64,000 nucleotides of DNA from Candidatus Jorgensenbacteria bacterium. Its GTDB lineage: Bacteria; Patescibacteriota; Minisyncoccia; UBA6257; GWB1-50-10. Of the stretch, positions 25-35,925 are shown piece by piece. A program made the translations under genes and the position numbers. The notes under the pieces are model-generated. The model had not been told where the DNA came from. It saw only the letters and a program-made list of their open reading frames with translations, and did no database searches. The stretch lies in assembly GCA_043807585.1 (NCBI GenBank), contig JAZDFV010000013.1:2039-66038 (forward strand), in the 5' to 3' direction. Each line of letters begins with the position of its first letter. Position 1 is the stretch's first letter.

Positions 25-1059
25 ATGAGAATTTATAGAGATATTTTTGAGCAGATCATATCGCCCGAAAATCTTTTCTCGGCGTGGGACGAGTTCAGAA
101 AAGGGAAGCAAAACAAACCTGACGTACTCCGGTTTGAATGGAATCTTGAGCAGAATATTTTTCAACTCCATCGGGAGCTGGAAAACAAAACGTATCGCCA
201 CGATTCCTACAAGAGTTTCTATATACATGACCCGAAACAGCGGCATATTCACAAGGCCTCGGTGCGGGACCGGGTTCTCCATCACGCTATTTTTTCCGTT
301 ATAAGTCCGATTTTTGAAGAAACGTTCATACCGACCTCGTTTTCGTGCCGCGTCGGATACGGCACCCACAAAGGCGTTGATGCTTTGAGAAAAATGGCGA
401 GGGAAACAAGTAAAAACGGGATGTGTCCCTGTTTCATTTTGAAATGCGACGTCAGGAAGTTCTTTGACTCCGTAAATCACGAAATTCTGCTTTCCATTTT
501 GAAAAAAAGGATCAAAGATGATGATGCAATGTGGCTTTTGGAATCCGTGGTGAGAAGTTATGAGAGCGTGCCGGGGAAGGGAATCCCGATAGGAAATCTG
601 ACTTCGCAGATTTTCGCCAATATCTACATGAACGAATTTGACCGATTTATGAAACATAGGTTGAGGGTGGGTCATTACATTCGTTACACCGACGATTTCT
701 CCTTGGTTTCCCAAAATTGCGAAGCATTAAAAAAACTTCTGCCGCTCATTTCTGCATTCCTTGAAAATGAACTTACGCTCTTGCTACATCCTAATAAAAT
801 CATAGTTCGTAAATTATGTCAAGGTGTAGATTTTCTCGGCTACGTTATTTTTCTGAAGTACCTGCGGTTGCGGACAAAAACAAAGCGGAGGATGTTTGCA
901 AAGATGCAGAGGCGAATTTCGGAATACCAGTCCGGCCATATCGGCAGGCCTGTTTTGGAGCAATCCCTGCAATCGTATTTAGGCGTTTTGTCTCACGCGA
1001 ACGCATACGCGCTTGGCGAGGATTTGAAGAATCAACTCATATTCCGTGGTAGAATATGA
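25..1059 (+). CDS. Diversity-generating retroelement (DGR)-type reverse transcriptase, apparently full length
   Basis: 344-aa ORF with RT motifs 1-7. DGR hallmarks: N-terminal block 'FYIHDPKQRHIHKASVRDRVLHHAI', motif 4 'GIPIGNLTSQIFANIYMNEFD' (SQ signature instead of group II intron QGxxxSP), catalytic 'YTDD'. No maturase or endonuclease domain. Visibly AT-richer than neighbours. Stop overlaps the mreC start. Confidence 0.8.
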   Translation: MRIYRDIFEQIISPENLFSAWDEFRKGKQNKPDVLRFEWNLEQNIFQLHRELENKTYRHDSYKSFYIHDPKQRHIHKASVRDRVLHHAIFSVISPIFEETFIPTSFSCRVGYGTHKGVDALRKMARETSKNGMCPCFILKCDVRKFFDSVNHEILLSILKKRIKDDDAMWLLESVVRSYESVPGKGIPIGNLTSQIFANIYMNEFDRFMKHRLRVGHYIRYTDDFSLVSQNCEALKKLLPLISAFLENELTLLLHPNKIIVRKLCQGVDFLGYVIFLKYLRLRTKTKRRMFAKMQRRISEYQSGHIGRPVLEQSLQSYLGVLSHANAYALGEDLKNQLIFRGRI

Positions 1060-4148: not shown

Positions 4149-4259
4149 CCAGTCGCCTATGAAAGGACTTGAGTTTTGGTTTTGCTTTCTTAATAGTCGG
4201 CGCCCTGCTCTTTATTATTGGGCGGGTTCCACTTGCGGAGGCGGCAGTTCAGCAGTTAG
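4078..4259 (+). repeat. Repeat R1: native mrdA 3' end (last ~22 codons plus stop), spacer, and 5' ~110 nt of the downstream secreted-protein gene
   Basis: ~181/182 nt, ~95% identical to R2 at 7531-7711. Confidence 0.85.
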
Positions 4260-6475
4260 TTTTCGATACGCTTGATAGTATGGAGGCAGTTCATCCCGCG
4301 CAGGGTATAGGCACTGGTTTGTCCGGTAGTTTTGGTTCTCTCACCATAAAATTTTTGGGTACTCGAACCTATTGTTCGTATGCGCCGGTGATTTTGGGAT
4401 ATCCTTCCGAAGCTTCTTGGCTTGCCGGTTACAATAATTATGTGAGTTATCGCAAGGCCAATCTCGTGCTTCCTTGTGGCAGTAGTGTTGGTGAAGCTAC
4501 GCATACTATTTCTGCCGGTGATTTTCCGGGCGGCCCGGTGGTTTTCAATCCATCGCTTTATTACGTGGTACATCTAGAAGGAGGCACCAGCGGTACTATT
4601 TTTGGAAAGGTACGAGGGTCGGGGATTGATGTTCTTGCTGGCGGCCAGTTTTGTAGATATATGTCTTGGCAAGACCCCGCGCCTTCCGGCTGTTCGCTGA
4701 CTGTGAAGGATATGTATTTCGATCTTCAAGGGGTTTCCCCGGCGCCTCCGGCTGGCGGCATTTCGATAAGTAATTTAGGGCAATTCAAATCTGATGCGAC
4801 GAGCACGATTCCGGAGGGCAGTGCAACGACTGAGGATACGATTGTGTTTGGCGCAACGCTTCAGTCGTCATCTACAGATCAATTGCAGCTGCAGGTGGAA
4901 GTACAACCGTCGAGTATGCCTTTCACGAACCAGCCTACTTCGACGAGTACACTAGTAAACTCCGGGGAGTTTGCCACCACAGCGGCAAATCTTTCTGACG
5001 GCGAATACCATTGGCAGGCAAGAGCAGCGGATAGCCAAAACAACGTTTCAGAGTGGCAGGAGTTTGGAACGCCAAGCAATACTGATTTCGTAATTCACCA
5101 AGTGCCGTTGTATACGCAGGTGATATCTGATTTTCCATCGCAGGCAGATACCAAAAATTGGGCCCGTGAAACTTACGCCGAAGGCAGAGGAAATATTGGG
5201 CCCGAAGATCAACGTTGCGGTCTTACTATAAGAGATTGCGGTTGCGCTATCACATCCGCGGTTATGGTTTTGCGTTATTATGACATTACAACGGGTACAG
5301 ATAATCAAGACGTAAACCCGCTTACTTTCAATAACTGGCTTAATGCTAATAATGGTTACGTCGGCAATGGCAATCTTGATTGGGTGAAGGTCGTGGAGTA
5401 CTCCAGAGATTCTCTTTCCGGCATTGCCCGTTTGCATTACGACGGAAGGCGTGACATCGGAGACAATTTCGGAACAACGTTTAACGATCTTGTTAACCTG
5501 ACGGATTCTTATGTAAATTCAGCGAGACCGGTTATTGCTTGGATTCCAAGCTTTGGCCATTTCCTTGTTGCCAACGAAAAACTCGCAAATAATTACGCAG
5601 TTAGAGACCCCGCTTGGTACAACACGAGAACCCTCGATTCGGAGACAACAAGCGCATTGCAGAGAATCCGTGATTACAACAATCAGTTTGAAGGAGTGCG
5701 TCTATACAGTCATTTCAGTGGCCCCGTGGACGGCATCTCTTTGAATCTTGCCTCGCCCGCGGAACTTCTCGTAATAGACCCGCAGGGGAGGCGATTAGGT
5801 AGAGACCCAATTTCCAATATTGTCTATAGCGAAATTCTAAACAGCTCTTACGGCAGAGATGGCATCAGTAATGCCGACACCGAAGTTCCCGACTCGCCGC
5901 ACATAGTCAAAAACATCTGGGTTCCAGAACCGATAACCGGCTCTTACGAAGTTAAAGTTATAGGCACCGCGAGTGGCACGTATTCATTGAACAGCTTGAT
6001 TTACGACGCAAGTAGCACGCCCCATTTAGCGACATTTAGTGGCATTACAGCCCCAAATAGCGAAACTGATTATACTTTAAATTATTCCACCAGTACGCCT
6101 CAAGAGATTTCAGTAAAAGAAGTTTATAAATTTCTTGGTTTTCTTCCTCCGGTTAAATCCGACGGAAGCGGAGTTTGCAGACTTGGCCGGACTTTGCCGG
6201 TAAAGTTCCAGCTGAAAAACGCCCTCGGCCAATTTGTAACGAATACAACGGCAACGCTTACGGTAGCAAAAATACAGGATGGCATTGTCGGAACTGAAGA
6301 AGTAGCATTTTCAAGCGGGAATTCCAATGCAGGAAATACTTTCAGATACGATTTCCAAAACGATCAATATATCTTTAATCTGAACACAGGCACAATGACC
6401 GCGGGTACTTGGCAACTCAAGCTAAAACTGGATGACGGTAAGAGTTATACGGTTTTGATCTCATTGAGAAATTAG
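4169..6475 (+). CDS. Secreted multidomain protein with papain-fold (peptidase C39-like) Cys/His/Asp domain and beta-sandwich modules (cassette gene A1)
   Basis: Signal-peptide-like N-terminus 'LIVGALLFIIGRVPLAEA' shared with 7612..9765. Shared middle domain 'VKDMYFDLQGVSPAPP...HWQARA.DSQNNVSEWQEFGTP'. 'RDCGCAITSAVMVLRYY...GHFLVANE...VRDPAWYN' suggests a C39-like cysteine peptidase. C-terminal 'KSYTVLISLRN' is shared with orphan module 11436..11639. Starts at a TTG because a 1-nt insertion relative to copy 2 breaks the ATG frame. Confidence 0.55.
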   Translation: MSFGFAFLIVGALLFIIGRVPLAEAAVQQLVFDTLDSMEAVHPAQGIGTGLSGSFGSLTIKFLGTRTYCSYAPVILGYPSEASWLAGYNNYVSYRKANLVLPCGSSVGEATHTISAGDFPGGPVVFNPSLYYVVHLEGGTSGTIFGKVRGSGIDVLAGGQFCRYMSWQDPAPSGCSLTVKDMYFDLQGVSPAPPAGGISISNLGQFKSDATSTIPEGSATTEDTIVFGATLQSSSTDQLQLQVEVQPSSMPFTNQPTSTSTLVNSGEFATTAANLSDGEYHWQARAADSQNNVSEWQEFGTPSNTDFVIHQVPLYTQVISDFPSQADTKNWARETYAEGRGNIGPEDQRCGLTIRDCGCAITSAVMVLRYYDITTGTDNQDVNPLTFNNWLNANNGYVGNGNLDWVKVVEYSRDSLSGIARLHYDGRRDIGDNFGTTFNDLVNLTDSYVNSARPVIAWIPSFGHFLVANEKLANNYAVRDPAWYNTRTLDSETTSALQRIRDYNNQFEGVRLYSHFSGPVDGISLNLASPAELLVIDPQGRRLGRDPISNIVYSEILNSSYGRDGISNADTEVPDSPHIVKNIWVPEPITGSYEVKVIGTASGTYSLNSLIYDASSTPHLATFSGITAPNSETDYTLNYSTSTPQEISVKEVYKFLGFLPPVKSDGSGVCRLGRTLPVKFQLKNALGQFVTNTTATLTVAKIQDGIVGTEEVAFSSGNSNAGNTFRYDFQNDQYIFNLNTGTMTAGTWQLKLKLDDGKSYTVLISLRN

Positions 6476-7530: not shown

Positions 7531-7711
7531 TGAACACGGTGCCGGTGGCGCGGGACGTGTTTCTGTGGTACTATGAGAATCGGTTAAAGAATAAAATGTG
7601 ACCAGTCGCCTATGAAAGGACTTGAGTTTTGGTTTTGCTTTCTTATAGTCGGCGCCCTGCTCTTTATTATTGGGCGGGTTCCACTTGCGGAGGCGGCAGT
7701 TCAGCAGTTAG
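7531..7711 (+). repeat. Repeat R2: displaced copy of the mrdA 3' end (with its own stop codon) plus start of cassette gene A2
   Basis: Encodes '...LNTVPVARDVFLWYYENRLKNKM*' versus native '...LNTVPVARDVLLWYYENRLKNKI*'. Confidence 0.85.
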
Positions 7712-9765
7712 ACGACTCCGTAACTTCTGTAACCTCATATTCTAATCCCGTACAGACCATAGGTGGCATTACTGGTACGCTCTCGTCATTGACTATTCAC
7801 TTCGCCTCACAAGGCAGTTTAATTATGGTGAAAATGATTGTGAGAGAATATGACACAATGCCCGAGGGTGCGCCTAACGGGTATTCACAGCAGTGGTATC
7901 CTATTTCCGATAATTATATGCGGGATGGGACCTCGGCAACGTTCACTGCTTCGGAATACTCAACGCCGGTAGTTTTCAATCCTGATAAATACTATGCTTT
8001 TATGTTTTATCAAATGGATAGATACCTTCAAGGTTCCGGTTCAGATGTTCTCCAAGGCAAGTTTTATTCAACTGGTACGACGGGTAATACTACGGAAGAT
8101 CCGAATGTGAAGGATATGTATTTCGATCTTCAAGGGGTTTCCCCGGCGCCTCCGGTCGGCGGCATTTCGATAAGTAACTTAGGGCAATTCAAATCTGACG
8201 CGACGAGCACGATTCCGGAAGGCGGCGCGACGACCGAAGGTATGATTGTGTTCGGCGCAACGCTTCAATCATCATCTACAGATCCACTGCAGTTGCAGGT
8301 AGAAGTACAACCGTCGAGTACACCTTTCACGAACCAGCCCACGGCGACAAGCACATTTATTGACCCGGGGGGTTTTGCTACTACGACAGTTACGAATCTG
8401 CCTAACGGCCAGTATCACTGGCAGGCAAGGGCGGTAGACAGCCAAAACAACGTTTCGGAGTGGCAGGAGTTTGGAACGCCAGGAAATATAGATTTTGAAG
8501 TAAGCATGCCTTTATCTACCAAGGCAGTGAATCTTGCAAAACTCGTTATTAACGGGCCATATTTAGGAGACGGCGACACTTTCGGTGGCAAGGGGTGGGA
8601 TCCTGTGCGGGCTGAATATGTAACTTCAAGCCTGATTCTAAGTGGATATCAGTATTGGAATAACAAATTGAGGATCATTGCTTTTGGGGCGGGTCTTGAC
8701 TGTTCTGGATTAGTGCAATGGGCATTTAACCGTTCCTTTGATCCCAAAAAGAGTCTGCTGAAGAATGTGGTTCGTTACGATGGGGCGGATGGGCAGTATA
8801 AAAATAATTCTGAAAACATAGCCGAGGCGGATCTGCGGCCAGCCGATTTATTGTTTCTCGATAAAGATGGTAATGGTGGAAAGGACCATGTTGCGATGTA
8901 TGTGGGAGATAATGGAACATTCGATGTTGTAGAAGCACATTCGCCAGCACGAGGTATCATTACCTCTAACAAAGCTGAGTTTAAGACAAGGGCTGGATTC
9001 ATTGGAAACCAAGGTTTTCGACGAGTAATTGCCAGTCCATCAATAGGAGGTCAAGTTAAAGTTAGCTCTCCAATTGATTTAATTGTGACCGACCCTGATG
9101 GATTTACTATTACACCAACGACGGTGATTCAAACCGACGAGGAGTATCTCCGAGAAGTACCGGGTGAACTTTACTACACGGAAAATGTGCTGGGGATTGA
9201 TGGTCGTCCGGAGGACATAGTTTACTGGCCCGCGCAGAAGATTGGTAATTATAGCATTAAAGTTCTCCCCGAAGCTGACGCTATGCCGACAGAAACTTAC
9301 TCAATGGAATTTACTGTTGGCGAGCAGACGATTGTTTTGGCAGACGATGTTCATTTAGATCAGATACCGTTGGAAGGTTATGGAGTTAACATCGCGAGTA
9401 GTGGTGCAATCAGCACTTTTGTGCCAGTAGCTATTGATATCAAGCCGAACAGTTTTCCTAATAGTATCAATTTAGGTTCCAAAGGCACTACCCCAGTGGC
9501 CATTCTCGGCTCTGCGACACTTGATGTTAAACAAATTGACCCGAACACAATTAAACTCGCAAATGCCCCAATCAAATTAAAGAACAACGGAAAGTTGATG
9601 ACAAGTTATGAGGACGTAAACGGAGATGGCTTTACCGACATGGTCGTTCATATTATTACCGCTGTGCTTCAATTAGCTCCCTCGGATGTGAAAGCGGAGC
9701 TGAGCGGTTTCCTCTTGGATAGAAGAGAAATAAAAGGGTCGGATTCGGTCAAAATTGTGCCATAA
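7612..9765 (+). CDS. Secreted multidomain protein with NlpC/P60 cysteine peptidase domain and beta-sandwich modules (cassette gene A2)
   Basis: Same N-terminus and middle domain as A1. 'DCSGLVQWAF...DHVAMYVG' matches NlpC/P60 Cys/His. PPC-like module 'IDLIVTDPDGFTITPTT...YSIKV'. C-terminal 'IKPNSFPNSINLGSKGTTPVAILGS' module. Confidence 0.6.
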   Translation: MKGLEFWFCFLIVGALLFIIGRVPLAEAAVQQLDDSVTSVTSYSNPVQTIGGITGTLSSLTIHFASQGSLIMVKMIVREYDTMPEGAPNGYSQQWYPISDNYMRDGTSATFTASEYSTPVVFNPDKYYAFMFYQMDRYLQGSGSDVLQGKFYSTGTTGNTTEDPNVKDMYFDLQGVSPAPPVGGISISNLGQFKSDATSTIPEGGATTEGMIVFGATLQSSSTDPLQLQVEVQPSSTPFTNQPTATSTFIDPGGFATTTVTNLPNGQYHWQARAVDSQNNVSEWQEFGTPGNIDFEVSMPLSTKAVNLAKLVINGPYLGDGDTFGGKGWDPVRAEYVTSSLILSGYQYWNNKLRIIAFGAGLDCSGLVQWAFNRSFDPKKSLLKNVVRYDGADGQYKNNSENIAEADLRPADLLFLDKDGNGGKDHVAMYVGDNGTFDVVEAHSPARGIITSNKAEFKTRAGFIGNQGFRRVIASPSIGGQVKVSSPIDLIVTDPDGFTITPTTVIQTDEEYLREVPGELYYTENVLGIDGRPEDIVYWPAQKIGNYSIKVLPEADAMPTETYSMEFTVGEQTIVLADDVHLDQIPLEGYGVNIASSGAISTFVPVAIDIKPNSFPNSINLGSKGTTPVAILGSATLDVKQIDPNTIKLANAPIKLKNNGKLMTSYEDVNGDGFTDMVVHIITAVLQLAPSDVKAELSGFLLDRREIKGSDSVKIVP

Positions 9766-11649: not shown

Positions 11650-12735
11650 ATGACCTCATTATTTCGAAGGAGGGTTTTTTTGTTGTTTGTACTGCTCATT
11701 ATCGTGAGTGCGATATTTTGGTTTTACTTACGCTATTTCCGATTTCACACCGCTGACACTTCCCAGGTTCCAGGCAATGCCACCACGACGGAAGAAATTA
11801 ATAAAGTAAAACACGGCCCATGCCTTGCGGATGACGAAATGGTTGAATACGACCGTATAAGCCAACACCTACTTATTACACAACCGAAAGACATGTCGCC
11901 AGTTATTTATGTACGCAATAAAACTACAGGTGAGACGACGGTTAGCTTTCGACTTGATGACGTTATGGTTTTTGGACATCCGATGGAGATACACAATTGT
12001 GGTGTTTACGTTGTAAGAGCTTTCAATTATGACCCGCAAAAAGCTAAGCAAGAAATAGGTTTTCGTGATGAGTTGTGGAAATACGATTATCGGGGAGAGA
12101 AAAAAATGTTGATATTGCTTTCCGAGAAGCCGAAAGAATTCATTGACTATTACGGCCTTGAATTTCGTGTTGCCCCCACAGAAACCTACGTTTCTTTTAT
12201 ACGCGGGTACTTGGGTAAGGCCGACTATGCCATCGTCATTAAAGATTTAAACGCGCTCAGAGATATTTTGACTCTGACAATTGCAGAAATCGAAAAGCGC
12301 AATCCGGATTTAGTGCAGGATATCGCATTCGACGACTGGACCAACGACGGTCGCTACTTCTGGGTCCACACGCATTATGGAGCAAACACTTTGGGTTTCA
12401 TTCGCATAGATATGGAAACAAAAACCTTTGATTTATTTCCTGCGCCGAAAGATGTTCTGGGCGGCGATGCTCTCAATCTTGAAAAGGGATTAATCACGGT
12501 TCATCCAGGCAATGTCTGGTTCGGCATTGCCCAAGTGGAGGAACAGGAAAAAGCCAAGCGGAGAGCACAGAGCATCGGCACCGAACTGTACGTTGAAAAC
12601 CTTTTTACCCACGAGCGCCAGTTTGTGGCGAGCACCGCAGAACCGCTCCACTACTTCAAGCCGAAGTGGATTTCCGACACTGAACTGGAGTATTCCCTGC
12701 CGTCAGGGGAAACGAAGATGTATACAATTCCTTGA
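11650..12735 (+). CDS. Membrane-anchored hypothetical protein (cassette family B, copy 2)
   Basis: Paralog of 6478..7521. Confidence 0.5.
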   Translation: MTSLFRRRVFLLFVLLIIVSAIFWFYLRYFRFHTADTSQVPGNATTTEEINKVKHGPCLADDEMVEYDRISQHLLITQPKDMSPVIYVRNKTTGETTVSFRLDDVMVFGHPMEIHNCGVYVVRAFNYDPQKAKQEIGFRDELWKYDYRGEKKMLILLSEKPKEFIDYYGLEFRVAPTETYVSFIRGYLGKADYAIVIKDLNALRDILTLTIAEIEKRNPDLVQDIAFDDWTNDGRYFWVHTHYGANTLGFIRIDMETKTFDLFPAPKDVLGGDALNLEKGLITVHPGNVWFGIAQVEEQEKAKRRAQSIGTELYVENLFTHERQFVASTAEPLHYFKPKWISDTELEYSLPSGETKMYTIP

Positions 12736-13396: not shown

Positions 13397-14842
13397 ATGC
13401 TCCGCGACCTTATAGCCGAACGCAGGCGAAAGCTTGCCACCTACCGCGAGGCGGCTGACCCATACCCGGCTTCGGTGGCGCGCACGGTGACGCTGGGGGA
13501 CCTCACTGCTCGTTTCGGGACATTCGCGCGCGGGAAACGACGGGTGTCGGTGGTAGGCCGAGTGGTTTCATGGCGGGATCAGGGCAAGATCCTTTTCGCC
13601 GGTCTCACCGATGCTACCGGGAAACTCCAGGTGGTGATGACTGCGGAAGCGACCGCTCCCTTCACCGTCTTGAAGCACAGCGTCGATATCGGGGATTTTT
13701 TGGAGGTGCGGGGGCGGGCGTTCACCACCAAGCGCGGGGAGAAAAGCATCCTCGCCGAGCGGGCGCGCCTTCTCTCGAAAAGTGTGCGCCCCGTCCCGAG
13801 CGAATGGTACGGACTCTCGGACATTGAGACCCGGCTCCGGAAACGTTATTTGGACCTCCTCGTAAACCCCGAGGTGCGCGAGCTTTTCGTGAAGAAAGCG
13901 GAGTTCTGGCGGACGATGCGGGGAGTGCTCGTGAAAGACGGATTCCTCGAGGTGGAAACGGGGGCGCTGGAGCCGGTCCCGGGGGGCGCGGATGCGGAAC
14001 CGTTCGTGACCCACATGAACGCCCTTGACCGGGATTTCTATCTGCGCATCTCGCTCGAGCTCCCATTGAAGCGGCTCCTCGTGGGTGGGTATGAGAAAGT
14101 GTTCGAGATCGGGCGCGTGTTCCGCAACGAAGGGATGGATCGCGACCACCTCCAGGACTACACCCAGATGGAGTGCTACGCGGCGTACTGGGACCACCGG
14201 GATATGATGAAATTCGTGGAGCGGCTTTTCCGCGCGGTCGTGAAGCGCACCGTCGGGTCTCTCTCCACGAAGCACGGGGGTAAGGCGGTGGATTGGGGAA
14301 AGGAATGGCCGGTGGTGGATTACTTCGCGGTTTTCAGGAAGGCGACGGGGATTGATCTGGAGAACGCCACGCGCGACGCCCTCCGCCTTGAGGCGGAAAA
14401 GCGGAAACTGGCGCCGGAGCCGCGTGCAGGCCGCGGGCGTCTCATTGACATGATTTTCAAGAAAGCGGTTCGTCCCACGCTTGTGCAGCCCTCGTTCCTC
14501 ACGGGGCACCCGGTGGATATCTCGCCGCTCGCGAAGTCCGATCCGGAGCATCCGAAGAAGACACTTCGTTTCCAGGTAATGGCGGCAGGAATCGAGCTGG
14601 GGAACGGCTGGGCGGAGCTCAATGACCCCGAGGAGCAGCGGCGCCGGTTTGGCGAGCAGATGAAGCTCCGCGCCGCTGGCGACAAAGAGGCTCAGCGGTT
14701 GGACGAGGATTTCGTGGAAGCTTTGGAGTATGGTATGCCGCCCGCCGCCGGATTCGGGCTTTCAGAGCGCTTCTTTGCGGTCCTGATGGATAAACCCATC
14801 CGCGAAACGGTCATGTTCCCGCTTATGAAAGAGGAAAAATAG
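13397..14842 (+). CDS. lysS: Lysyl-tRNA synthetase, class II
   Basis: OB anticodon-binding N-terminus; class II motifs ('FRNEG', 'GIDR'-like) in the catalytic core. Confidence 0.9.
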   Translation: MLRDLIAERRRKLATYREAADPYPASVARTVTLGDLTARFGTFARGKRRVSVVGRVVSWRDQGKILFAGLTDATGKLQVVMTAEATAPFTVLKHSVDIGDFLEVRGRAFTTKRGEKSILAERARLLSKSVRPVPSEWYGLSDIETRLRKRYLDLLVNPEVRELFVKKAEFWRTMRGVLVKDGFLEVETGALEPVPGGADAEPFVTHMNALDRDFYLRISLELPLKRLLVGGYEKVFEIGRVFRNEGMDRDHLQDYTQMECYAAYWDHRDMMKFVERLFRAVVKRTVGSLSTKHGGKAVDWGKEWPVVDYFAVFRKATGIDLENATRDALRLEAEKRKLAPEPRAGRGRLIDMIFKKAVRPTLVQPSFLTGHPVDISPLAKSDPEHPKKTLRFQVMAAGIELGNGWAELNDPEEQRRRFGEQMKLRAAGDKEAQRLDEDFVEALEYGMPPAAGFGLSERFFAVLMDKPIRETVMFPLMKEEK

Positions 14843-14845
14843 AAC

Positions 14846-14890
14846 GATGACCATGACGATGACCATGACCATGACTATAACCATGACGAT
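14846..14890 (+). repeat. (ATGACN)n hexanucleotide tandem array in the lysS-serS spacer
   Basis: gatgaccatgacgatgaccatgaccatgactataaccatgacgat. Confidence 0.8.
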
Positions 14891-16153
14891 ATGCTAGATA
14901 TTAACCTCATCCGGGAACAGCCGGACAAAGTGAAGGAGGGCGTTCAAAAGAAGAACGTCGACCCTAAGATTGTGGACAAATTTTTGCGTTTGGACGAACA
15001 GTGGCGGGCGAAGACCGCCATCCTGGACCAGCTGAAAACGGAGCAAAACCTCCTCTCGAAGGAGCTTTCACATGGCCAGAGCGAGGAGGCGCTCTCCAAA
15101 GCGCAAGTGTTGAAAAATAGGATCACCGGCGTTGCCGCCGAACGCAGCGAGGTGGAGGGAAAGCGGGATGAAGTGCATCACCAACTACCCAATCTTCCCC
15201 TTGCCGACGTGCAGGTGGGAAAGGATGAATCCGGGAACAAGGTGCTCCGCGAGGTTGGGGAAAAACCGACGTTTGATTTTACGCCGAATGATTATCTTTC
15301 CCTCGGAGAGAAATTGGGCATCATCAATGTGAAGAAGGCCAGCGAGGTTTCAGGACCGCGGTTCGGCTACCTCATGGGAGACGCGGTGCTTTTGGAATTC
15401 GCGCTCGTTAAGCTCGCATTTGATACGCTCATTCCGGAAGGGTTCACGCCTGTGATCCCGCCGGTGCTCGTGAAGGAACGCACCATGCGGGCCATGGGTT
15501 ACCTGGACCGCCACGAGGACCGCGACGAGGCGTACTTCTTTGAGAAAGACGGGCTCTACCTCGTGGGGACCTCGGAGCAGTCGCTCGGGCCGCTCCACAT
15601 CGGTGACGTGCTGGAGGAGGCCGAATTGCCGAAGCGCTACGTCGGGTTTTCCAGTTGCTTCCGGCGCGAGGCGGGCTCCTACGGGAAGGACACAAAAGGC
15701 ATTCTCCGCGTCCATCAATTCGACAAGGTGGAAATGTTCAGTTTCTGCAGTCCCGAGCAGTCGCGCGCGGAACACGCCTTCCTCCTCTCAATGGAGGAGA
15801 AGCTCATGCAGGCGCTTGAGATCCCGTACCGCGTGGTGGAGATATGCACGGGGGATTTGGGGAACGTTGCTGCGGCAAAGTTTGACATTGAAGCGTGGTT
15901 CGCGGGCGAGGGCGTGTACCGCGAGACACACTCAACATCCAATTGCACCGATTTCCAGGCGCGCCGCCTCAACGTGAAGTATCGCCCGAAGGAGAAAGGC
16001 GCAAAGCCCCGGTACCTGCATACACTGAACGGCACGGCATTTTCTCAGCGGCCGCTCCTCGCCATCATTGAGAACAACCAGCTCGCTACGGGCACCATTA
16101 AGGTCCCGAAGGCGCTCCAGGGGTACGTGGGGAAGAGGGAGATAGGGGTATAA
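14891..16153 (+). CDS. serS: Seryl-tRNA synthetase
   Basis: N-terminal coiled-coil arm and class II catalytic core with motifs 2/3. Confidence 0.9.
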   Translation: MLDINLIREQPDKVKEGVQKKNVDPKIVDKFLRLDEQWRAKTAILDQLKTEQNLLSKELSHGQSEEALSKAQVLKNRITGVAAERSEVEGKRDEVHHQLPNLPLADVQVGKDESGNKVLREVGEKPTFDFTPNDYLSLGEKLGIINVKKASEVSGPRFGYLMGDAVLLEFALVKLAFDTLIPEGFTPVIPPVLVKERTMRAMGYLDRHEDRDEAYFFEKDGLYLVGTSEQSLGPLHIGDVLEEAELPKRYVGFSSCFRREAGSYGKDTKGILRVHQFDKVEMFSFCSPEQSRAEHAFLLSMEEKLMQALEIPYRVVEICTGDLGNVAAAKFDIEAWFAGEGVYRETHSTSNCTDFQARRLNVKYRPKEKGAKPRYLHTLNGTAFSQRPLLAIIENNQLATGTIKVPKALQGYVGKREIGV

Positions 16154-16363
16154 CAAAACCCATTTCCCGCACTGGCAGTCGTTTCTGCGCAGGCGGGGAA
16201 CTCGGCTTTGAAAGTCCAGCATCAATCTTTGGTCCCGTACAGCAACGTGCGGAGCTTTTTATTTTAAAGCCCGCTCAACAAAACAAATATCCGCCTTGCG
16301 TTTTGTCAGCAACTCTCGGAGCGCCGACCCTGTTTTCTGTTTACCTCAGTTCCTTTTCTTGAT

Positions 16364-16526
16364 GTGAAGCTCCACTGGCTGACCTGCGCTTCGCCGAAGG
16401 CTTCGGCAAGGCGAGCGCCCGTGGCTTCTTTCCATTCGGGGTTCCGTGGAGCGCCTGCCCGCCGAAGCACGGGCGCAGGCGGGGAACCCCGCACCAGTCC
16501 GCCTTAGGCGGACGGTGCGGGGGTAA
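16364..16526 (+). other. Conserved ~165-nt element 'A' (copy 1); structured RNA or small antisense ORF
   Basis: Begins 'gtgaagctccac', ends 'ggtgcgggggtaa'. Highly similar to 31027-31198. Contains a 3' hairpin with compensatory changes between copies. Confidence 0.5.
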
Positions 16527-16528
16527 TT

Positions 16529-16562
16529 GTCCTTTATACCCACGATCGTGGGTATAAAGGAC
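16529..16562. promoter_or_regulatory. Perfect 34-nt palindrome (gtcctttatacccaCGATCGtgggtataaaggac) upstream of PaaX-like gene 1; putative operator
   Basis: Immediately followed by 'tatact' -10-like box and the gene start 20 nt downstream. Near-identical imperfect copy lies downstream at 17234-17267. Confidence 0.55.
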
Positions 16563-16581
16563 ATGTGCTATACTGGGATGG

Positions 16582-17223
16582 ATGGAATGTGAGAAAAACA
16601 CGAAGGTGGGAGAGCGGCCACGAAGAGCGAAAGGCGATATTCTCCTGCGGGTGTTGGAGAGGGTAGCGGAGGGTGCCGGAGATGCTGCCGCCATGTTTGG
16701 AGCTTTTTTGTCGGCTGGGTATGGCGCCTCGTATGGAAAACTGGAGCGAGAGCTCGCGCGGGAGCATGCAGGGAGGGAAGCAGCCGCGCAGGCGGTGCGG
16801 CTTGAAAGAGAAGCCAGGCGCAAATATCGGAAATTGTTCTACCTCCTCAAAAAGGACGGGCTTGTGGAGGAGAAGAAAAAAGCTCACAACAATATTTTTC
16901 TTCTCACCAGGCGGGGGGTGGCAAAACTCGCGGAGCTCCGCAAGCGGAAACTGCAGCTATTGCCTCGTCGGGTGTATGAGCCGGAGCGGGCGGACGTGTT
17001 CACTATTGTGACGTTTGATGTTCCGGAGAGAGATAGAAAAAAGCGAGAATGGCTTCGGGAAACATTGAGATCTCTGGGATTTGATTTTGTGCAAAGGAGC
17101 GTTTGGATAGGGAAGGTAAAGCTTCCGAAAGAGTTTTTGGAGGACATACAGCACCTAAACCTTATTGATTCTGTTGAGATTTTTCAGATTACAAAGACTG
17201 GCAGCTTGAAACACCTTATGTAA
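16582..17223 (+). CDS. PaaX-family protein: winged-HTH plus Cas2/VapD-like fold domain (paralog 1)
   Basis: 'YTIVTFDVPERDRKKREWLRETLRSLGFDFVQRSVWIGKV' fits the Cas2/VapD-like beta-alpha pattern seen in the PaaX C-terminal domain. N-terminal wHTH. Paralogs at 30449..30937 and 53202..53786. Confidence 0.6.
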   Translation: MECEKNTKVGERPRRAKGDILLRVLERVAEGAGDAAAMFGAFLSAGYGASYGKLERELAREHAGREAAAQAVRLEREARRKYRKLFYLLKKDGLVEEKKKAHNNIFLLTRRGVAKLAELRKRKLQLLPRRVYEPERADVFTIVTFDVPERDRKKREWLRETLRSLGFDFVQRSVWIGKVKLPKEFLEDIQHLNLIDSVEIFQITKTGSLKHLM

Positions 17224-17233
17224 TGTGTGGAAT

Positions 17234-17267
17234 GTCTTTTATACAGACGATCGTCTACATAAAGGAC
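17234..17267. repeat. Imperfect 34-nt palindrome downstream of PaaX-like gene 1 (cognate of 16529-16562)
   Basis: gtcttttatacagaCGATCGtctacataaaggac. Confidence 0.55.
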
Positions 17268-17354
17268 AAACCATGTGCTGGGAGATGTGAATGGTAAAAC
17301 GATGAGAGAACGAAAGCGGTTGAGTGTTGCGTTTGACGCACGCGCACTCTCTAG

Positions 17355-17417
17355 TCAGGGTTCCCTTGCCTCGTCGCAGATGAGCTTCGGTTCCTCGTCG
17401 CGCCAAGAGAGGCGCCC
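17355..17417 (-). repeat. Copy of the dnaE 3' end; 49 nt (17369-17417) identical to 55571-55619; encodes variant C-terminus '...EEPKLICDEAREP*'
   Basis: Direct orientation relative to dnaE (coding on minus strand) with its own in-frame stop. Confidence 0.75.
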
Positions 17418-17533
17418 CGAGACATTCCACTCGTATCTTGGTCTCCTGAAGCATGGGAACGCGCGCAGGTTGAAACGGCGCGCGCGGTATTTGTGTTATA
17501 ATTTTTCTGTACCAATGGATCCTCATTTTTAAA

Positions 17534-21833: not shown

Positions 21834-21999
21834 TTCTATACTTGAAAGGCTTGGTTGGAGCAATGGGAGCCGTAGGCGAACCAGTGCTCCATTCCAAACT
21901 TTCACCCCGTTAGATAAGAATATGAAAACCGTGGCAGTAAACAGACATAACGTATATCGATTACTATCGGTCGGCGATTCCCTGTCCTCGCTATCTAAC

Positions 22000-22067
22000 G
22001 GGGTGCTCGATTTTGTAGATAAATTTTCTTCTTCTACAGACTCGAAAATTTGTACAAAATCGGCATG
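22000..22067 (+). promoter_or_regulatory. Conserved ~68-nt leader / translation-start element (copy upstream of hrcA)
   Basis: ggggtgctcgattttgtagataaattttcttcttctacagactcgaaaatttgtacaaaatcggcATG. Same element precedes mraZ and ftsL. Preceded by a long IR (21903-21916 / 21992-22005). Confidence 0.6.
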
Positions 22068-28828: not shown

Positions 28829-28923
28829 GATACCAATATACTAATGCATACTAATGATACAAATAATGCTAATGATTCGTATTCATTCGTATCATTCGCA
28901 CCAATTCGTATATTAGCATCGTG
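28829..28923. repeat. AT-rich MITE-like hairpin repeat (family member 2) in the rplJ-rplL spacer
   Basis: gataccaatatactaatgcatactaatgatac ... attcgtatattagcatcgtg. Confidence 0.6.
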
Positions 28924-28935
28924 TAAGCGAAGCGT

Positions 28936-29304
28936 ATGGAAAAATTTGAAGACATCATAGAAAAAGTGGAAAAGATGACGGTGCTGGAGCTCTCCGAGCT
29001 CGTACATGCGCTCGAAGAGAAATTCGGCGTCTCCGCGGCGGCTATGGCGGTCGCGGGTGACCCTTCGACAGGCCTAGGGCAGGAGGAAGAAAAAACCGCG
29101 TGGACGGTGGTCTTGAAGGCCAGCGGCGGCCAGAAGATCAACGTCATCAAGCTGGTGAAGGAGGCGACGGGGCTAGGCCTCAAGGAAGCGAAGGATATTG
29201 TGGATGCCGCTCCGAAGAACGTGAAGGAGGGACTCAAAAAGGAAGATGCGGAGGAACTGAAAAAGAAGCTGGAGGATGTGGGCGCAACGGTGGAATTACA
29301 GTAG
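28936..29304 (+). CDS. rplL: 50S ribosomal protein L7/L12
   Basis: N-terminal dimerisation helix, Ala/Glu-rich hinge, C-terminal '[12 protein letters not shown]'. Confidence 0.9.
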
Positions 29305-29320
29305 CTTTCTCGTGGACGGA

Positions 29321-29360
29321 AAAGGCGCCTGTCGCATTACGCGGCGGGCGCCTTTCTTTA
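29321..29360. terminator. Hairpin terminator after rplL (bidirectional with 29365..30258)
   Basis: aaaggcgcc ... ggcgccttt cttt. Confidence 0.55.
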
Positions 29361-29364
29361 CCTA

Positions 29365-30258
29365 TTAGGAAAGCTCCTTACGTACCTTGTCGTGGAGGGC
29401 CGCAAGTCCCGCGAGGAGCGTGAACTGCTGGGCGGGAGAATCCACGTTGTGGCAACTAAACTCATATCCACTTCCTTTATCGGGCGAGCATGAATATGAG
29501 GGATGAAGCCCACACGCGTCGCCGGGGCAGCTTACGTTCAACCATCCGCCCCTATAGGCGATATGCGCCGAAAAGCTGTGGTCATCGAGCGGTCCTCGGC
29601 CGAGCATATGGTAATAGGCGGTCCTCATTGCCTTTTCCATTTCTGGGATGACATAAACGTGCCGCTCGGGTAAATCCGTCACCTTCGAAGCGAGCCACGA
29701 AGTAAGCGGAACGCTATACATCCCGCCGAGGCTTCCTCCGTGCATGTCCCTCATCGTTAGCGTTTCCACGGAGAGGAGTTGTGGGAGCTTCGAGGAGGTT
29801 TCGGCGTCATTCAGGTAATTGAGCAGGGAGAAAAGGACAGTAAAGCTCGCCGAGACCGCGAACGCTTCGTGCCAGAGGTAGTTGTATTGCTTTCCGGTGC
29901 CGCCGCAGCGTAGGCATTCGCCGCCGAAAATTCTATCCTTCTTCTTTCCTTTGCAGGAGGGGCATACTTTCCCGACTCTTTGCTTGACGATCGGTGCGCT
30001 TGCCATCAGTTCGATGAATTCGCCGCGCGGGCCGCGATAGGTGAGCGCCCCTTCGAATCCGAACCCGTTCACGGGTTTCTCCGAGAAATTCTTGAAGTTG
30101 AATTCCGGATCGAAGTTTCGGACCATCGGCGAGTCAGGTTTGATTTGCTCGAACAATTTCAGCATATCTCGATGAATTCGGACAACGATTGCGGTTTTCT
30201 CCGGTAGCCAGGACAGTTCATACCAACAAGGCAGAACATCGTAGATGATGATTTTCAT
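29365..30258 (-). CDS. Hypothetical protein with CxxC...CxxC zinc-ribbon
   Basis: 297 aa; 'CPSCKGKKKDRIFGGECLRCGG'. No recognised family. Confidence 0.4.
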   Translation of the reverse strand: MKIIIYDVLPCWYELSWLPEKTAIVVRIHRDMLKLFEQIKPDSPMVRNFDPEFNFKNFSEKPVNGFGFEGALTYRGPRGEFIELMASAPIVKQRVGKVCPSCKGKKKDRIFGGECLRCGGTGKQYNYLWHEAFAVSASFTVLFSLLNYLNDAETSSKLPQLLSVETLTMRDMHGGSLGGMYSVPLTSWLASKVTDLPERHVYVIPEMEKAMRTAYYHMLGRGPLDDHSFSAHIAYRGGWLNVSCPGDACGLHPSYSCSPDKGSGYEFSCHNVDSPAQQFTLLAGLAALHDKVRKELS

Positions 30259-30374
30259 GAGCAGATCCCTCCCAAGTGTCTTTAGTTTTGTGATTCGTTG
30301 CTGGTTTTGAGACTACAGATTTTCAGGGGTTGCGTCAAGTATGGCGCGCGCGTTTTCGCCGCCATCCGGATGAT

Positions 30375-30408
30375 GTTAACAAATTACACGGCCGTGTAAT
30401 TTGTTAAC
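30375..30408. repeat. Perfect 34-nt palindrome gttaacaaattacacGGCCgtgtaatttgttaac flanking PaaX-like gene 2
   Basis: Cognate copy at 30985-31015. Third solo copy at 39593-39625. Confidence 0.6.
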
Positions 30409-30448
30409 ATAAGGTGTCTTGTGGAATTTCAGCACCGTCGGGCCCGGT

Positions 30449-30937
30449 TTAAATGATCTCAGCTTCTCGCGCCTTGAAGAATTTGATGTATCGCAGAAGG
30501 TCGAGCGCCTCCAGCGCCTCTATAAAATCTTTCGGGAGGGGAGCGGGGCCAAGCCACACACTCTGTTGGAGTTTTACGAAACCGAGATTTAAAAGTTCAA
30601 AGCGGAGCCATTCACGTTTTCTCCGGAGCCGCTCCGGTATGTCGAATGCGATGATGAGCGATTTTTCTTTTGCGGGTTCTTTGATCTTCCGTTTGGTGTG
30701 TGTGGGCAATTTGAGCGCAAGTTTTTCGAACCCCTTTTTCGTTGTGGCCCAAACACCATTATCGTTTTTGACGAATCCTGCATGTTTGAGCCGGGAGAGC
30801 GTAACGCGAATGGAAGCATCGTTGTAGTGTGCCGCAGGCCTTCGGTCCTCATGCATTCCCATAAGCCGCCGCCGCATGAGGCGGTACCCCCCGTGATAAT
30901 CCAAGAGTACCGTAATGATGTCATCCGCCAAGCTCAT
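30449..30937 (-). CDS. PaaX-family protein: winged-HTH plus Cas2/VapD-like fold domain (paralog 2)
   Basis: 'IIAFDIPERLRRKREWLRFELLNLGFVKLQQSVWLG'. Confidence 0.6.
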   Translation of the reverse strand: MSLADDIITVLLDYHGGYRLMRRRLMGMHEDRRPAAHYNDASIRVTLSRLKHAGFVKNDNGVWATTKKGFEKLALKLPTHTKRKIKEPAKEKSLIIAFDIPERLRRKREWLRFELLNLGFVKLQQSVWLGPAPLPKDFIEALEALDLLRYIKFFKAREAEII

Positions 30938-30984
30938 ATTTTTTGTCCCTTCGTTTTTTACTTCTTTACTTTCGTATAATATAT

Positions 30985-31015
30985 TAACATTTTACACGGC
31001 CGTGTGAAATGTTAA
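30985..31015. promoter_or_regulatory. Palindrome ttaacattttacacGGCCgtgtgaaatgttaa overlapping the putative promoter of PaaX-like gene 2; putative operator
   Basis: Lies ~50 nt upstream of the minus-strand start. -10-like 'tatatt/tattatac' overlaps on the coding strand. Confidence 0.55.
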
Positions 31016-31026
31016 TAGTGCACAAA

Positions 31027-31198
31027 GTGAAGCTCCACGGGCTGACCTGTGCTTCACCGAAGGCTACCTCCTTCGCCGAAGTGGCTTCAACTACGAAGGC
31101 TGAGTCGGCAAGGCGAGCGCCTGTGGCTTCTCTCCATTCGGGATTCCGTGGAGCGAAACCCTGCACCGTCCCGCTTAGCGGGACTGGTGCGTGGGTAA
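31027..31198 (+). other. Conserved element 'A' (copy 2)
   Basis: Same sequence family as 16364-16526, with a 39-nt net insertion and a covarying hairpin. Confidence 0.5.
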
Positions 31199-31263
31199 GA
31201 TCTTTGATGGGGACCGAGGGTTGTTTACAGAAGCGGTGCCGTTTCGTTTGACGCGCACCCCGC

Positions 31264-31662
31264 TTGGGGGGTAATTTCAGGGTAGTTCCAACAAACCAGA
31301 ACAAAGGGAAAGGGCCGGCGATGGACGCTAAATTGCAGACCTCGACCGAGGAGCGCATGAACGTCCTCAAGGGTGCCATCGCGGCGAGCGTGCGGCGCAC
31401 CCCGCTCTCCGTCAATGGGGTGATGGAAAAGCTCTCCGGGGCGCGTATCGATTTGGACTACAATCGCGCTATCGTGGAGCGGCTCGTCCGTGAGCTCTGC
31501 GAGGAGGGGAGGGCGATAGGCCGGAACGGCTCCGTTGCCTGGAACCACGCGCGCGGCCTTTGCCACGAGAATGATGGAAAGGGAGTTTGTCGCTGTTGTG
31601 GCGACCTCTTCATGCGGGGAAAGGGAGGGCGCCTCATATGCCCCTCGTGTCTGTTCAAATAG
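31264..31662 (+). CDS. Hypothetical wHTH-like protein with C-terminal zinc ribbon
   Basis: 132 aa; 'CRCCGDLF...CPSC'. Confidence 0.35.
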   Translation: MGGNFRVVPTNQNKGKGPAMDAKLQTSTEERMNVLKGAIAASVRRTPLSVNGVMEKLSGARIDLDYNRAIVERLVRELCEEGRAIGRNGSVAWNHARGLCHENDGKGVCRCCGDLFMRGKGGRLICPSCLFK

Positions 31663-31890
31663 GGTGCCGTTTTTGCGAACTTGTCCTTCGGTTCGCTCAG
31701 GACAATCCTGAGCTGGTCGAAGGGTTGCAGAACCGGCACCGTTTTGTTTTACTGTGAACGAAGGGATTTAGACGCGCGCATAGCTCAGCTCCGACGCCAG
31801 CAAGGCAGGGTCGGAGAGCCGACTAGAACGTCGGCTTGGCAGAGCGGTCGCCTCAGGCGACAGGTCGCAGATTCGCTTCTTCACATGTTT

Positions 31891-34071: not shown

Positions 34072-34198
34072 TCCCGATTTTGCCCGATCCGCCAGCTGGC
34101 GGAGAGGTTACAAAATCGAGGACCCAGCACATAAGACATTTTGCTATGCATATTTCAAAGGAACAAAAACTGACCGTTTTTCGAAAGAACCTTATGTG

Positions 34199-34267
34199 CT
34201 GGGTGCTCAATTCCGTAGATAAATTTTTTTCGTCGACCGACTCAAAAATTTATACGTAATTGGCATG
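34199..34267 (+). promoter_or_regulatory. Conserved ~68-nt leader / translation-start element (copy upstream of mraZ)
   Basis: ctgggtgctcaattccgtagataaatttttttcgtcgaccgactcaaaaatttatacgtaattggcATG. Preceded by IR arms 34123-34135 / 34191-34203. Confidence 0.6.
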
Positions 34268-34696
34268 TTACTTGGAGAATACAGGCACAGCGTAGACCCG
34301 AAGGGACGAATCGCCATCCCCGCAAAGTTTCGCGGGAAGGTGGGGAGCGGCGCCATCATCACGCGGGGCTTGGACCACTGTCTTTTCGTATTCGGCGCCA
34401 AGGAGTGGGAGGCGCTTGCGGCAAAACTCACCGCGCTCCCCTTGGCCCAGGCGAATTCTCGCGCCTTTGCCCGCCTCATGCTTGCCGGTGCTTCCGATGT
34501 GGAGCTCGACACGCAGGGGCGGATTTTAATTCCTGACTACCTCCGCACCTACGCCGGCATCACGAAGCAGGCGGTGGTGGCGGGCGTGATGAACCGCATG
34601 GAGATTTGGGACGAGAAGGCGTGGGATAGCTATAAGGCGAAGACGGAATCCTCGTCGGACGAGATCGCGGAACAGTTGGGGGCGTTGGGGATTTAA
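34265..34696 (+). CDS. mraZ: Transcriptional regulator MraZ
   Basis: 'MLLGEYRHSVDPKGRIAIPAKFR' with duplicated MraZ/SpoVT-AbrB motifs. Confidence 0.85.
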   Translation: MLLGEYRHSVDPKGRIAIPAKFRGKVGSGAIITRGLDHCLFVFGAKEWEALAAKLTALPLAQANSRAFARLMLAGASDVELDTQGRILIPDYLRTYAGITKQAVVAGVMNRMEIWDEKAWDSYKAKTESSSDEIAEQLGALGI

Positions 34697-34846
34697 TGAC
34701 TATGACAATAACCATGACAATGAAGATAACCACGACTAATGACTATGACCAACTATGACTAATGACTATGACTAATGACCATGACTTATAACAAAGCGCA
34801 CGGTTCATAAGCAGGAGCTGTCATCGTCATACGTCATCGTCATTAG
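34696..34846. repeat. (ATGACN)n hexanucleotide array with complementary (GTCATC)n arm, forming a long spacer hairpin
   Basis: atgactatgacaataaccatgacaatga... then ...tgtcatcgtcatacgtcatcgtcat. Confidence 0.75.
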
Positions 34847-35788: not shown

Positions 35789-35925
35789 AGCCGTTGCGGC
35801 GAAGAAATTATGGCTTGCAAACCTTACCGAGCACATAAAAGTATGAAAACATCAACCAATCTTAAAGTAATTGCTTCTCGATTGAACGATTTGTACCAAG
35901 AAAGTCGCTTGGTTACTTTTATGTG

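Follow-up and report, generated by a model that had tools for sequence, protein, structure and literature searches.

Imperfect palindromes of the ERIC type, about 127 nt long, keep their sequence over wide phylogenetic distances, and their presence varies between related genomes. Longer variants arise from insertions at fixed internal sites and shorter ones from deletions; the copies are transcribed together with their neighbours, and we know of no transposase that moves them. REP and REPIN sequences are short, imperfect, GC-rich intergenic palindromes with invariant arms, which form hairpins in single-stranded DNA or mRNA, are non-autonomous and build mosaic clusters through insertion into or beside existing copies (PMC3116915). 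Here we describe element A, a repeat present twice (16364-16526 and 31027-31198) in a 64,000-nt stretch of contig JAZDFV010000013.1 of a Candidatus Jorgensenbacteria bacterium, which is referred to below as the window. It is one member of a family that seems not to have been described before: interspersed repeats, rich in G+C and non-coding, that form hairpins and occur in several phylum- or class-level lineages of the candidate phyla radiation (CPR), frequently more than once in a genome. The family has a modular anatomy, stems that covary, copies gained or lost between relatives and no coding capacity. We think it rather probable that it is a new family of non-autonomous mobile hairpin repeats of the REP/REPIN, ERIC or miniature inverted-repeat transposable element (MITE) kind.

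An earlier note, made from the letters of the window alone, had placed two copies of about 165 nt at these positions. Pairwise alignment, a repeat finder, a pattern scan and a covariance model all bear this out, and the coordinates it gave fit exactly the ends common to all family members. The repeat finder returned families D16 (51 nt, 94% identity) and D18 (39 nt, 92%). A 19-nt core pattern with up to three mismatches matched both copies and nothing else, with 0.07 matches expected by chance. The covariance model R1, run over the 64 kb with filters off, scored copy 1 on the minus strand at 95.3 bits and copy 2 at 78 bits, and no third copy rose above noise in the window; the E-values of this model are rough, its calibration having been shortened.

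A conserved peptide translated from the element was back-translated to degenerate DNA patterns, which were scanned over a genome collection. Six loci were obtained, in Woesebacteria, in one Jorgensenbacteria metagenome-assembled genome (MAG; three contigs) and in one Saccharibacteria MAG (two contigs); an exact 29-nt pattern had no match in the genome-collection scan. A scan of metagenomes with DNA patterns added loci L009, L011, L015 and L017, while three other matches (L010, L012 and L016) were discarded as chance matches in unrelated high-GC DNA. Spurious small open reading frames (ORFs) led to copies in Nealsonbacteria, in other Patescibacteria and at loci L046, L047 and L048. The homologues scored 40-90 bits with the covariance model. 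Scans of viral contigs found no element, and BLAST against phages and plasmids gave short chance matches only. No description of such elements was found in the searchable literature on CPR repeats or non-coding RNA.

Every copy whose neighbouring gene calls were examined is intergenic, and the orientation relative to the neighbours is random. The G+C fraction of the element is 0.50-0.70 (0.57-0.70 except at L005), against 0.31-0.55 in the surrounding host DNA. The core is nucleotide-identical, would-be synonymous sites included, between the Woesebacteria locus, which has flanks of 35% G+C, and the window with 54% G+C. Besides the two copies in the 64-kb window, at least four were found in the Jorgensenbacteria CG23 MAG and two within 6 kb at L019. 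REP sequences are specific to a species or genus, whereas element A keeps a near-identical module across phylum-level CPR lineages; its density in the window is low (2 in 64 kb), and REP and REPIN sequences number tens to hundreds per genome.

The anatomy of the element is read below on the sense strand of the family, which is the minus strand of the window (Table 1). From 5' to 3', it comprises a TTACCC or TTTAYYCYCC leader, optional hairpins H1 and H2, GAAG(AUA), an 8-bp stem Pa with its apex, the 3' arm of Pa and a tail AG-CUUC-AY, for a total of about 80-240 nt. The 5' end reads TTACCC in Jorgensenbacteria and TTTAYYCYCCUYYGC.GAA.A.CC in short forms from other lineages; H1 and H2 come after TTACCC in the long forms (copy 1, copy 2, L009 and L003). 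GAAG, often followed by AUA, stands 5' of Pa and by our reading can pair with the CUUC of the tail. The apex of Pa is either a plain tetraloop (GCAA in unit 1 of L046, UCUU in L029) or a near-invariant module of 34 nt, CUCGCCUUGCCGAAGCCUUCGGCGAAGCGCAGGU. This module is an imperfect palindrome of two inverted 13-mers, CGCCUUGCCGAAG and CUUCGGCGAAGCG. Woesebacteria, Nealsonbacteria and other copies have it in identical form, and the two Saccharibacteria copies depart from it at three to four bases. As a repeated extragenic imperfect palindrome built as an inverted hairpin pair, element A resembles REP, REPIN and BIME sequences; REPINs, however, are symmetric, and the ends of element A are not (TTACCC... 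and ...AGCUUCAY).

The module is expanded at two points. The first, after GCCGA, carries 39 nt in copy 2 and L048 and 30 nt in L017; the second, after AGCCU, carries 33 nt in L002, L004, L009 and L011 and a different 33 nt in L048. The net indel of 39 nt that the earlier note had seen between the window copies is thus a real insert at the first of these points. Double-unit forms with two stems occur at L001, L046 and L029. The 34-nt module sits in stem 1 in L001 and in stem 2 in L046, and the stem that lacks it is capped by a plain GCAA loop in L046 and, in L001, by an apex of 51 nt that is divergent. Truncation is frequent among the copies (L015, L039, L048). Element A shares with ERIC its size class, the conserved sequence, the fixed-site insertions and the variable presence, and differs in sequence and host, its hosts having streamlined genomes of roughly 1 Mb; its nested modules (H1, H2, two apex insertion sites, double-unit forms) are also more varied than those of ERIC. 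A further observation is that several variants contain one to three perfect Shine-Dalgarno-like AAGGAGG motifs (copy 2, 31066-31104; L017, 2030-2060; L019, 3085-3130; L048, 655-670), and that the leaders of short forms hold the complementary CCUCC/CUCCUUCG. These motifs may be pairing partners within the hairpin or a ribosome-related decoy.

The stems Pa and H1 are maintained by compensatory changes, and the 34-nt module itself does not vary. The hairpin for which the earlier note had reported such changes, in the 3' portion as read on the plus strand, is H1, and it is genuine: two adjacent CG<->GC double swaps separate the window copies. Over four long-form copies H1 is 89% paired, with three pairs altered on both sides, and the two CG<->GC swaps distinguish copy 1 from copy 2 and L009. 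Pa, a stem that the earlier note had not described, was counted in 18 copies and is 92.4% paired. Both sides have changed in four of its eight pairs, with 10 double-change cells, a result equalled by none of 500 shuffles, and in slid registers the pairing falls to 15-45%. Examples of compensated arms are CCACGGGC/GCCCGUGG, CCCCGUAC/GUGCGGGG, CCGCGGGC/GCCCGCGG and CCUUGCGC/GCGCAGGG. This covariation emerged after divergent copies had been added and the count limited to Pa; in an alignment of 11 cores the covariation term of RNAalifold was about 0, because the core hardly varies. Long forms offer the 3' sequence CCCGUGGAGC two possible partners, the nearby Pa arm and the distal GCUCCACGG (helix P1); as P1 is invariant and gives no covariation signal, covariation does not discriminate between the two pairings.

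Conserved structure of this sort would also be expected of a multi-copy structured RNA gene, the minus-strand transcript of which is functional, with the 34-nt bulged helix as a binding site, the variable hairpins as expansion segments and mobility as a secondary matter. The covarying stems speak for it, and so does a modest bias to the single-stranded form of the minus strand: 13 cells of Pa are G-U on the minus-strand sense versus 5 that are G-U on the other strand alone, and Pa is 92.4% paired in the sense and 86.8% in the antisense direction. The 5' and 3' flanks are conserved and single-stranded, the insertion points are fixed at the apices of helices, as in real RNAs, and folding z-scores range from -4 to -4.8. 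Set against this, both strands fold about equally well (z-scores of -3.9 to -4.5 relative to shuffles for the window copies on both strands), the core gives next to no RNAalifold covariation, and both window copies have uncompensated mismatches in Pa. Moreover, compensatory changes are reported to be common in REPIN hairpins, the folds of which are predicted 'in ssDNA or mRNA', so that such changes are equally expected for mobile hairpin DNA and do not separate it from an RNA gene (PMC3116915).

Signals of transcription are likewise divided. About 40 nt upstream of the Nealsonbacteria copy, which is antisense to both of its neighbours, we read a promoter-like TTGACG/TTGACA-16-TAATAC, kept between strain variants with a varying spacer. 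Consensus scans of the two window copies, on the other hand, found no consistent promoter or terminator. An RNA gene is also difficult to reconcile with a module that sits in different stems in different copies, with the frequency of truncated copies and with the lack of any Rfam match. Even so, the extreme conservation of the core across phyla, where REP-type repeats are normally species-specific, keeps this explanation in contention, and we regard it as unlikely without being negligible.

The element matches no Rfam family. At the gathering thresholds of Rfam 15, the window yielded two tRNAs only, neither of them at the element; at E<=10, both copies gave hairpin-shaped miRNA noise only, and eight related loci had no match at the element. 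The lone suggestive match was DUF3800-VIII (RF03075) on the Nealsonbacteria copy L029, in which the hairpin arms ...GCCUUGCCGAAGCC... / ...GUAGGCAAGGC... of that family are resembled. Membership was dismissed since the score was sub-threshold (23.5 bits against a gathering score of 40.2) and the window copies had no match to this family at E<=10; there is also no DUF3800 gene nearby. ARAGORN found tRNA-Val and tRNA-Glu, elsewhere in the window, and no other tRNA or tmRNA. Manual comparison with signal recognition particle RNA, RNase P, 5S, the 3' end of 16S, the cores of twister, pistol and hammerhead ribozymes and the K-turn gave short chance resemblances, in agreement with Rfam.

The element is not protein-coding. 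The earlier note had left the choice between a structured RNA and a small antisense gene; the conserved nucleic-acid structure with compensatory changes is confirmed, and the small antisense ORF is not. In six-frame translations of twelve distinct copies, not one frame runs through the conserved core of every subfamily without a stop. Both the minus frame proposed earlier and a GTG-initiated plus frame are broken by a TAA that lies in the 33-nt insert of L002, L004, L009 and L011, and the 39-nt insert of copy 2 carries stops in three other frames. No consistent start codon is found, the overlapping ORFs have no match in Pfam, and a peptide profile run against 5.8 billion proteins recovered 12 tiny unannotated ORFs over the same DNA and no longer protein with the motif. 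The earlier count of four of six substitutions at third codon positions is correct, but it does not hold as coding evidence: its chance probability is roughly 0.1-0.3 by our own estimate, and it is unable to pick a strand because the minus-strand frame shares its third positions with one plus-strand frame.

Two other observations could be taken for coding, namely that the antisense strand starts with GTG or ATG in most copies and that five of seven independent family indels are multiples of three (39, 9, 33, 33 and 30 versus 20 and 28 nt; sites at 31066-31104 and 16453-16480 of the window, at 4055-4087 of L002, and in L017 and L048), a marginal excess by our count (p about 0.05) in a family in which no frame is open throughout. 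The stops, the cross-phylum nucleotide identity at synonymous sites and the absence of a conserved upstream ribosome-binding context in the copies outweigh them. The pattern is also not that of a duplicated gene 3' end or att site, and we consider a small protein gene on either strand, or such a duplicate, hardly credible.

Evidence for mobility comes from relatives. Locus L004, duplicated by L041, is syntenic with 28900-31700 of the window and contains rplL, a palindrome, a PaaX-like gene on the minus strand, a second palindrome and a small ORF. In alignment A3, copy 2 is a clean block of about 172 nt that is absent from the L004 site; the flanks agree at about 90% as judged by eye, and the overall column average of A3 is 76%. 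Read on the sense strand, the filled site is CAAAGATC[TTACCC...GAGCTTCAC]TTTGTGC and the empty site CAAAGATC-CTGC-TTTGTGC. L004 and L041 have a short-form copy across the PaaX-like gene from this site, in the interval from rplL to the palindrome there; the window has a 297-aa ORF at that position, and the more distant L042 has neither copy. The 39-nt insert of the copy 2 type recurs, about 90% identical, in L048 at an unrelated locus upstream of rnpA; the 33-nt insert of the L002 type is found at four different loci (L002, L004, L009 and L011), and L002 has a second copy, of the L003 type, 170 nt beyond the first. The recurrence of such complex variants at unrelated loci argues for a copying element rather than local evolution.

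The ends of the element are informative as to its kind. With the Correia/NEMIS elements of Neisseria, which are MITEs, element A shares its size, non-autonomy, a hairpin RNA when co-transcribed, subfamilies with internal indels and the capacity of such elements to affect the expression of neighbouring genes. What defines a MITE, however, is a pair of terminal inverted repeats together with a target-site duplication (TA for Correia); element A showed neither, the duplication having been judged at one site. In lacking both, and in having a strand-specific hairpin a few nucleotides from the 3' end, it resembles the palindrome-associated transposable elements (PATEs) derived from IS200/IS605 and stand-alone TnpB omega-RNA elements. 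A T-rich tetranucleotide (TTAC, TTAT or TTAA) stands at the 5' junction of nearly all copies, and the strand asymmetry points to a single-stranded intermediate; PATEs insert 3' of a fixed tetra- or pentanucleotide that the empty site also has. PATEs have subterminal hairpins at both ends, recognised by TnpA. Every complete copy of element A has Pa as its 3' hairpin, 8 nt short of the end; the 5' hairpin H1, of unrelated sequence, is present in long forms only. Further differences are that the one empty site reads CTGC instead of TTAC, that no TnpA or TnpB is encoded nearby and that Rfam gave no match of the IS605 or HEARO type.

Several points weigh against a mobile repeat. The filled and empty sites form a single, imperfect pair without a direct repeat or target-site duplication at this one site, and CTGC stands where the filled site has TTAC, so that loss with a footprint is inseparable from gain; judging from the letters at the junction, TTAC may belong to the element or be a target that has diverged, and CTGC may be a footprint. 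The ends, TTACCCNC... and ...GGAGCUUCAY, have no terminal inverted repeats beyond CUCC/GGAG. REP and REPIN sequences are mobilised by RAYT transposases of the Y1 type, and among the approximately 50 window ORFs scanned with Pfam there was no transposase, integrase or RAYT-like gene. Finally, REP-type repeats usually fall far short of the near-identity that these 34 nt keep between phylum-level lineages, and a sequence-specific function, as the binding site of a protein or RNA, would explain such conservation no less well than recent horizontal spread would. One form this could take is a mobile structured RNA found CPR-wide, in which the 34-nt bulged helix, on its covarying stem with conserved single-stranded flanks, is the recognition or active site for a conserved protein or RNA of Patescibacteria. 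We think this improbable; such an RNA might serve a recombinase or nuclease, not recognised so far, as its guide or scaffold, or it might be a decoy for a factor that binds ribosomes or RNA.

The one unusual enzyme encoded in the window, a reverse transcriptase, was considered as a mobiliser and rejected: it is of the diversity-generating retroelement (DGR) type (IGNLTSQ) and lies 15 kb off, and no reverse transcriptase is found near other copies. Its 344-aa ORF (25-1059, plus strand) combines an RVT_1 domain with IGNLTSQ and YTDD, motifs of the DGR type. The stop of this ORF and the start of mreC (1056-1772) share 4 nt, and the ORF occupies the position where the relative L039 has mreB. A DGR template or variable repeat, if there is one, would have to be upstream of the window or among the paralogous genes 4169-6475, 7612-9765 and 11650-12735, which share repeats of 74-97% identity (D1, D2, D6-D8, D11).

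Both window copies stand beside PaaX-like genes. Three genes with a PaaX_M Cas2-like domain are present (16582-17223, 30449-30937 and 53202-53786), the N-terminal regions of which have sub-threshold winged-helix matches only. The first two each have a palindrome of their own, perfect and 32-36 nt long, on either side, and together with these palindromes they look like a mobile or autoregulated cassette in its own right. As the earlier note had claimed, the copies adjoin these palindromes, and their orientation relative to the PaaX-like gene is opposite at the two loci; the distance to the palindrome is 1 nt for copy 1 and 11 nt for copy 2. As further observations on the cassettes, a solitary third copy of the TTAACAAATTACACGGCCGTGTAATTTGTTAA palindrome is located directly after tRNA-Glu, the palindrome arms change symmetrically between strains (L002 versus L007), and one of the PaaX-like genes is annotated as Cas2 by NCBI. 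The PaaX-like proteins of the window are 100% identical to NCBI records of Jorgensenbacteria, which places the window in that lineage; the exact sequence of its SerRS had no record.

This proximity raises the question of whether the element is a functional part of the PaaX/Cas2-like cassette, for instance a regulated small RNA or a leader under a palindromic operator. A cassette palindrome is 1-14 nt away from each of copy 1, copy 2 and the L004 copy, and the first copy of L002 (L002a) has another perfect palindrome at a distance of about 50 nt. The palindrome beside copy 2 holds a plus-strand promoter-like site, TTTACA-17-AATAGT (30991-31019), which was recognised by consensus matching and points into the copy, with a start predicted at about 31026, at the first base of the copy. 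Yet the orientation differs between the loci, and the syntenic cassettes of L004 and L042 have no element on that side. The PaaX-213 homologues L043-L045, found in other genomic contexts, all lack the element, with flanking palindromes of the same type in L044 and L045 and none detected in L043, and no PaaX-like gene was seen beside the element in the other lineages examined. Since homologues keep their palindromes without the element, the element is not part of the cassette, to which it is unlinked in relatives, and a role of this kind is very improbable. An empty site for copy 1 was not found through the PaaX-213 homologues, the closest of which (62-55% identity) are not beside serS.

From the positions of the copies, the closeness to palindromes looks like an insertion preference for existing hairpins; several other copies stand directly after the T-run of a terminator. 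A cis-acting RNA element under local selection, such as an intrinsic (bidirectional) terminator, an insulator or an mRNA stabiliser, would also account for some of these positions. U-runs follow several copies (L002a, GGAGUUUUAUU; L002b, GGAGUUUCAUUUUUUU, with AGAGAAAA on the other side; L005), and many copies are located directly after a terminator T-run or between convergent genes. The window copies, however, have no U-run, serS already has its own terminator (16235-16252), copy 2 lies between divergent genes and the neighbours are randomly oriented; nor would a terminator require an invariant sequence of 34 nt. We consider selection for such a role improbable.

Under the explanation that we favour, a non-autonomous mobile hairpin repeat, copying and insertion would proceed through a folded single strand of DNA, or possibly of RNA, and the enzyme would act in trans and be encoded outside both the element and the window. 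Insertion would favour intergenic DNA beside existing hairpins, terminator T-runs and palindromes, and the position of both window copies against PaaX palindromes would follow from such hairpin-adjacent insertion. An inserted copy would be passively transcribed with its neighbours: copy 2, at the predicted start of the plus-strand promoter in its palindrome, would on this consensus match probably form, as plus-strand RNA, the 5' leader of the ORF at 31322-31662. Within an mRNA such a copy could change the fold or affect termination, in the way known for ERIC, Correia and REP elements.

Table 1. Coordinates of the two copies of element A, their parts and the neighbouring palindromes in the window.
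Feature	Position	Strand	Remarks
Element copy 1, long form, 163 nt	16364-16526	minus (family sense)	5' TTAC (16526-16523) ... AGCUUCAC 3' (16371-16364)
Hairpin H1, copy 1	16487-16522	minus	CCCCGCACC-GUCCGCC-UAA-GGCGGAC-U-GGUGCGGGG; folds on both strands
Hairpin H2, copy 1, 30-nt, UUCG loop on minus strand	16453-16480	minus	optional; absent in copy 2, other lengths in L009 and L003
Helix P1 5' arm, copy 1, GCUCCACGG	16444-16452	minus	long forms only; rivals Pa 5' arm for 3' partner CCAGUGGAGC
Pa 5' arm, copy 1, CCACGGGC	16417-16424	minus	
34-nt module, copy 1, CUCGCCUUGCCGAAGCCUUCGGCGAAGCGCAGGU	16382-16415	minus	apex of Pa
Pa 3' arm, copy 1, GCCAGUGG	16372-16379	minus	one G-A mismatch
Conserved 3' tail, copy 1, AGCUUCAC	16364-16371	minus	
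Element copy 2, long form without H2, 172 nt	31027-31198	minus	insertion relative to the orthologous site of L004/L041
Hairpin H1, copy 2	31159-31195	minus	from folding and covariation count
Pa 5' arm, copy 2, CCACAGGC	31119-31126	minus	one A-C mismatch
39-nt insert in module apex after GCCGA, copy 2	31066-31104	minus	contains AAGGAGGU; about 90% identical in L048, 30-nt version in L017
Pa 3' arm, copy 2, GCCCGUGG	31035-31042	minus	
Perfect 36-nt palindrome (neighbour, not element)	16528-16563		upstream of PaaX/Cas2-like gene 16582-17223
Second related palindrome (neighbour)	17228-17273		
Palindrome (neighbour, not element)	30980-31015		separates copy 2 from PaaX-like gene 30449-30937 (minus); promoter-like hexamers facing both ways
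Further cassette-type palindromes	30376-30409; 39592-39625		

Other repeats were noted in the window and in relatives. Tandem 12-nt repeats similar to GATGACCATGAC (D3) occupy short intergenic regions at 14834-14908, 34695-34745 and 60392-60466; they precede serS directly, mraW by about 100 nt and rnc (60523-61227) by about 55 nt. A 70-nt family with 71-83% identity, ending in ...AATCGGCATG (D4/D5, I13/I14), is present at 21998-22067, 34198-34267, 35925-35994 and 59895-59964. Its members have an internal inverted repeat and are placed directly upstream of genes, such as the hrcA-like ORF at 22050, and may be a shared operator or leader. The short repeat CCTCGTCGCAGATGAGCTTCGG..., up to 98% identical over 55 nt (D12/D15), is found at 17368-17423, 53046-53071, 53888-53913 and 55570-55625, beside two PaaX-like cassettes and next to dnaE. 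The gyrB gene (42129-45365, plus strand) contains an intein, with an Intein_splicing domain at residues 457-875, upstream of the Toprim domain (876-975). In the Jorgensenbacteria relatives L002 (3800-3960) and L048 (330-545), a purine-rich segment of about 100 nt lies between CTACCGCATGCGGTAG palindromes, in opposite orientations; the two loci otherwise share about 70 nt leading into the element, and the CTACCGCATGCGGTAG palindrome is also found downstream of the L009 copy. The bracketed segment may be a module that inverts or that moves on its own.

The genomes of CPR bacteria are among the smallest and most streamlined known, and repeats and mobile DNA are usually said to be scarce in them. 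A 34-nt core that is near-identical from Saccharibacteria to Woesebacteria to Parcubacteria-type genomes implies either recent wide exchange of DNA or a shared sequence-specific function; if the structured-RNA explanation is true, the family would be a new RNA class and not junk repeats. For annotation, the element explains a set of spurious small ORFs, and it illustrates that hairpin covariation alone does not identify an RNA gene. With its diagnostic motif, defined ends and covariance model, element A offers a handle on DNA exchange and genome dynamics in these uncultured organisms.

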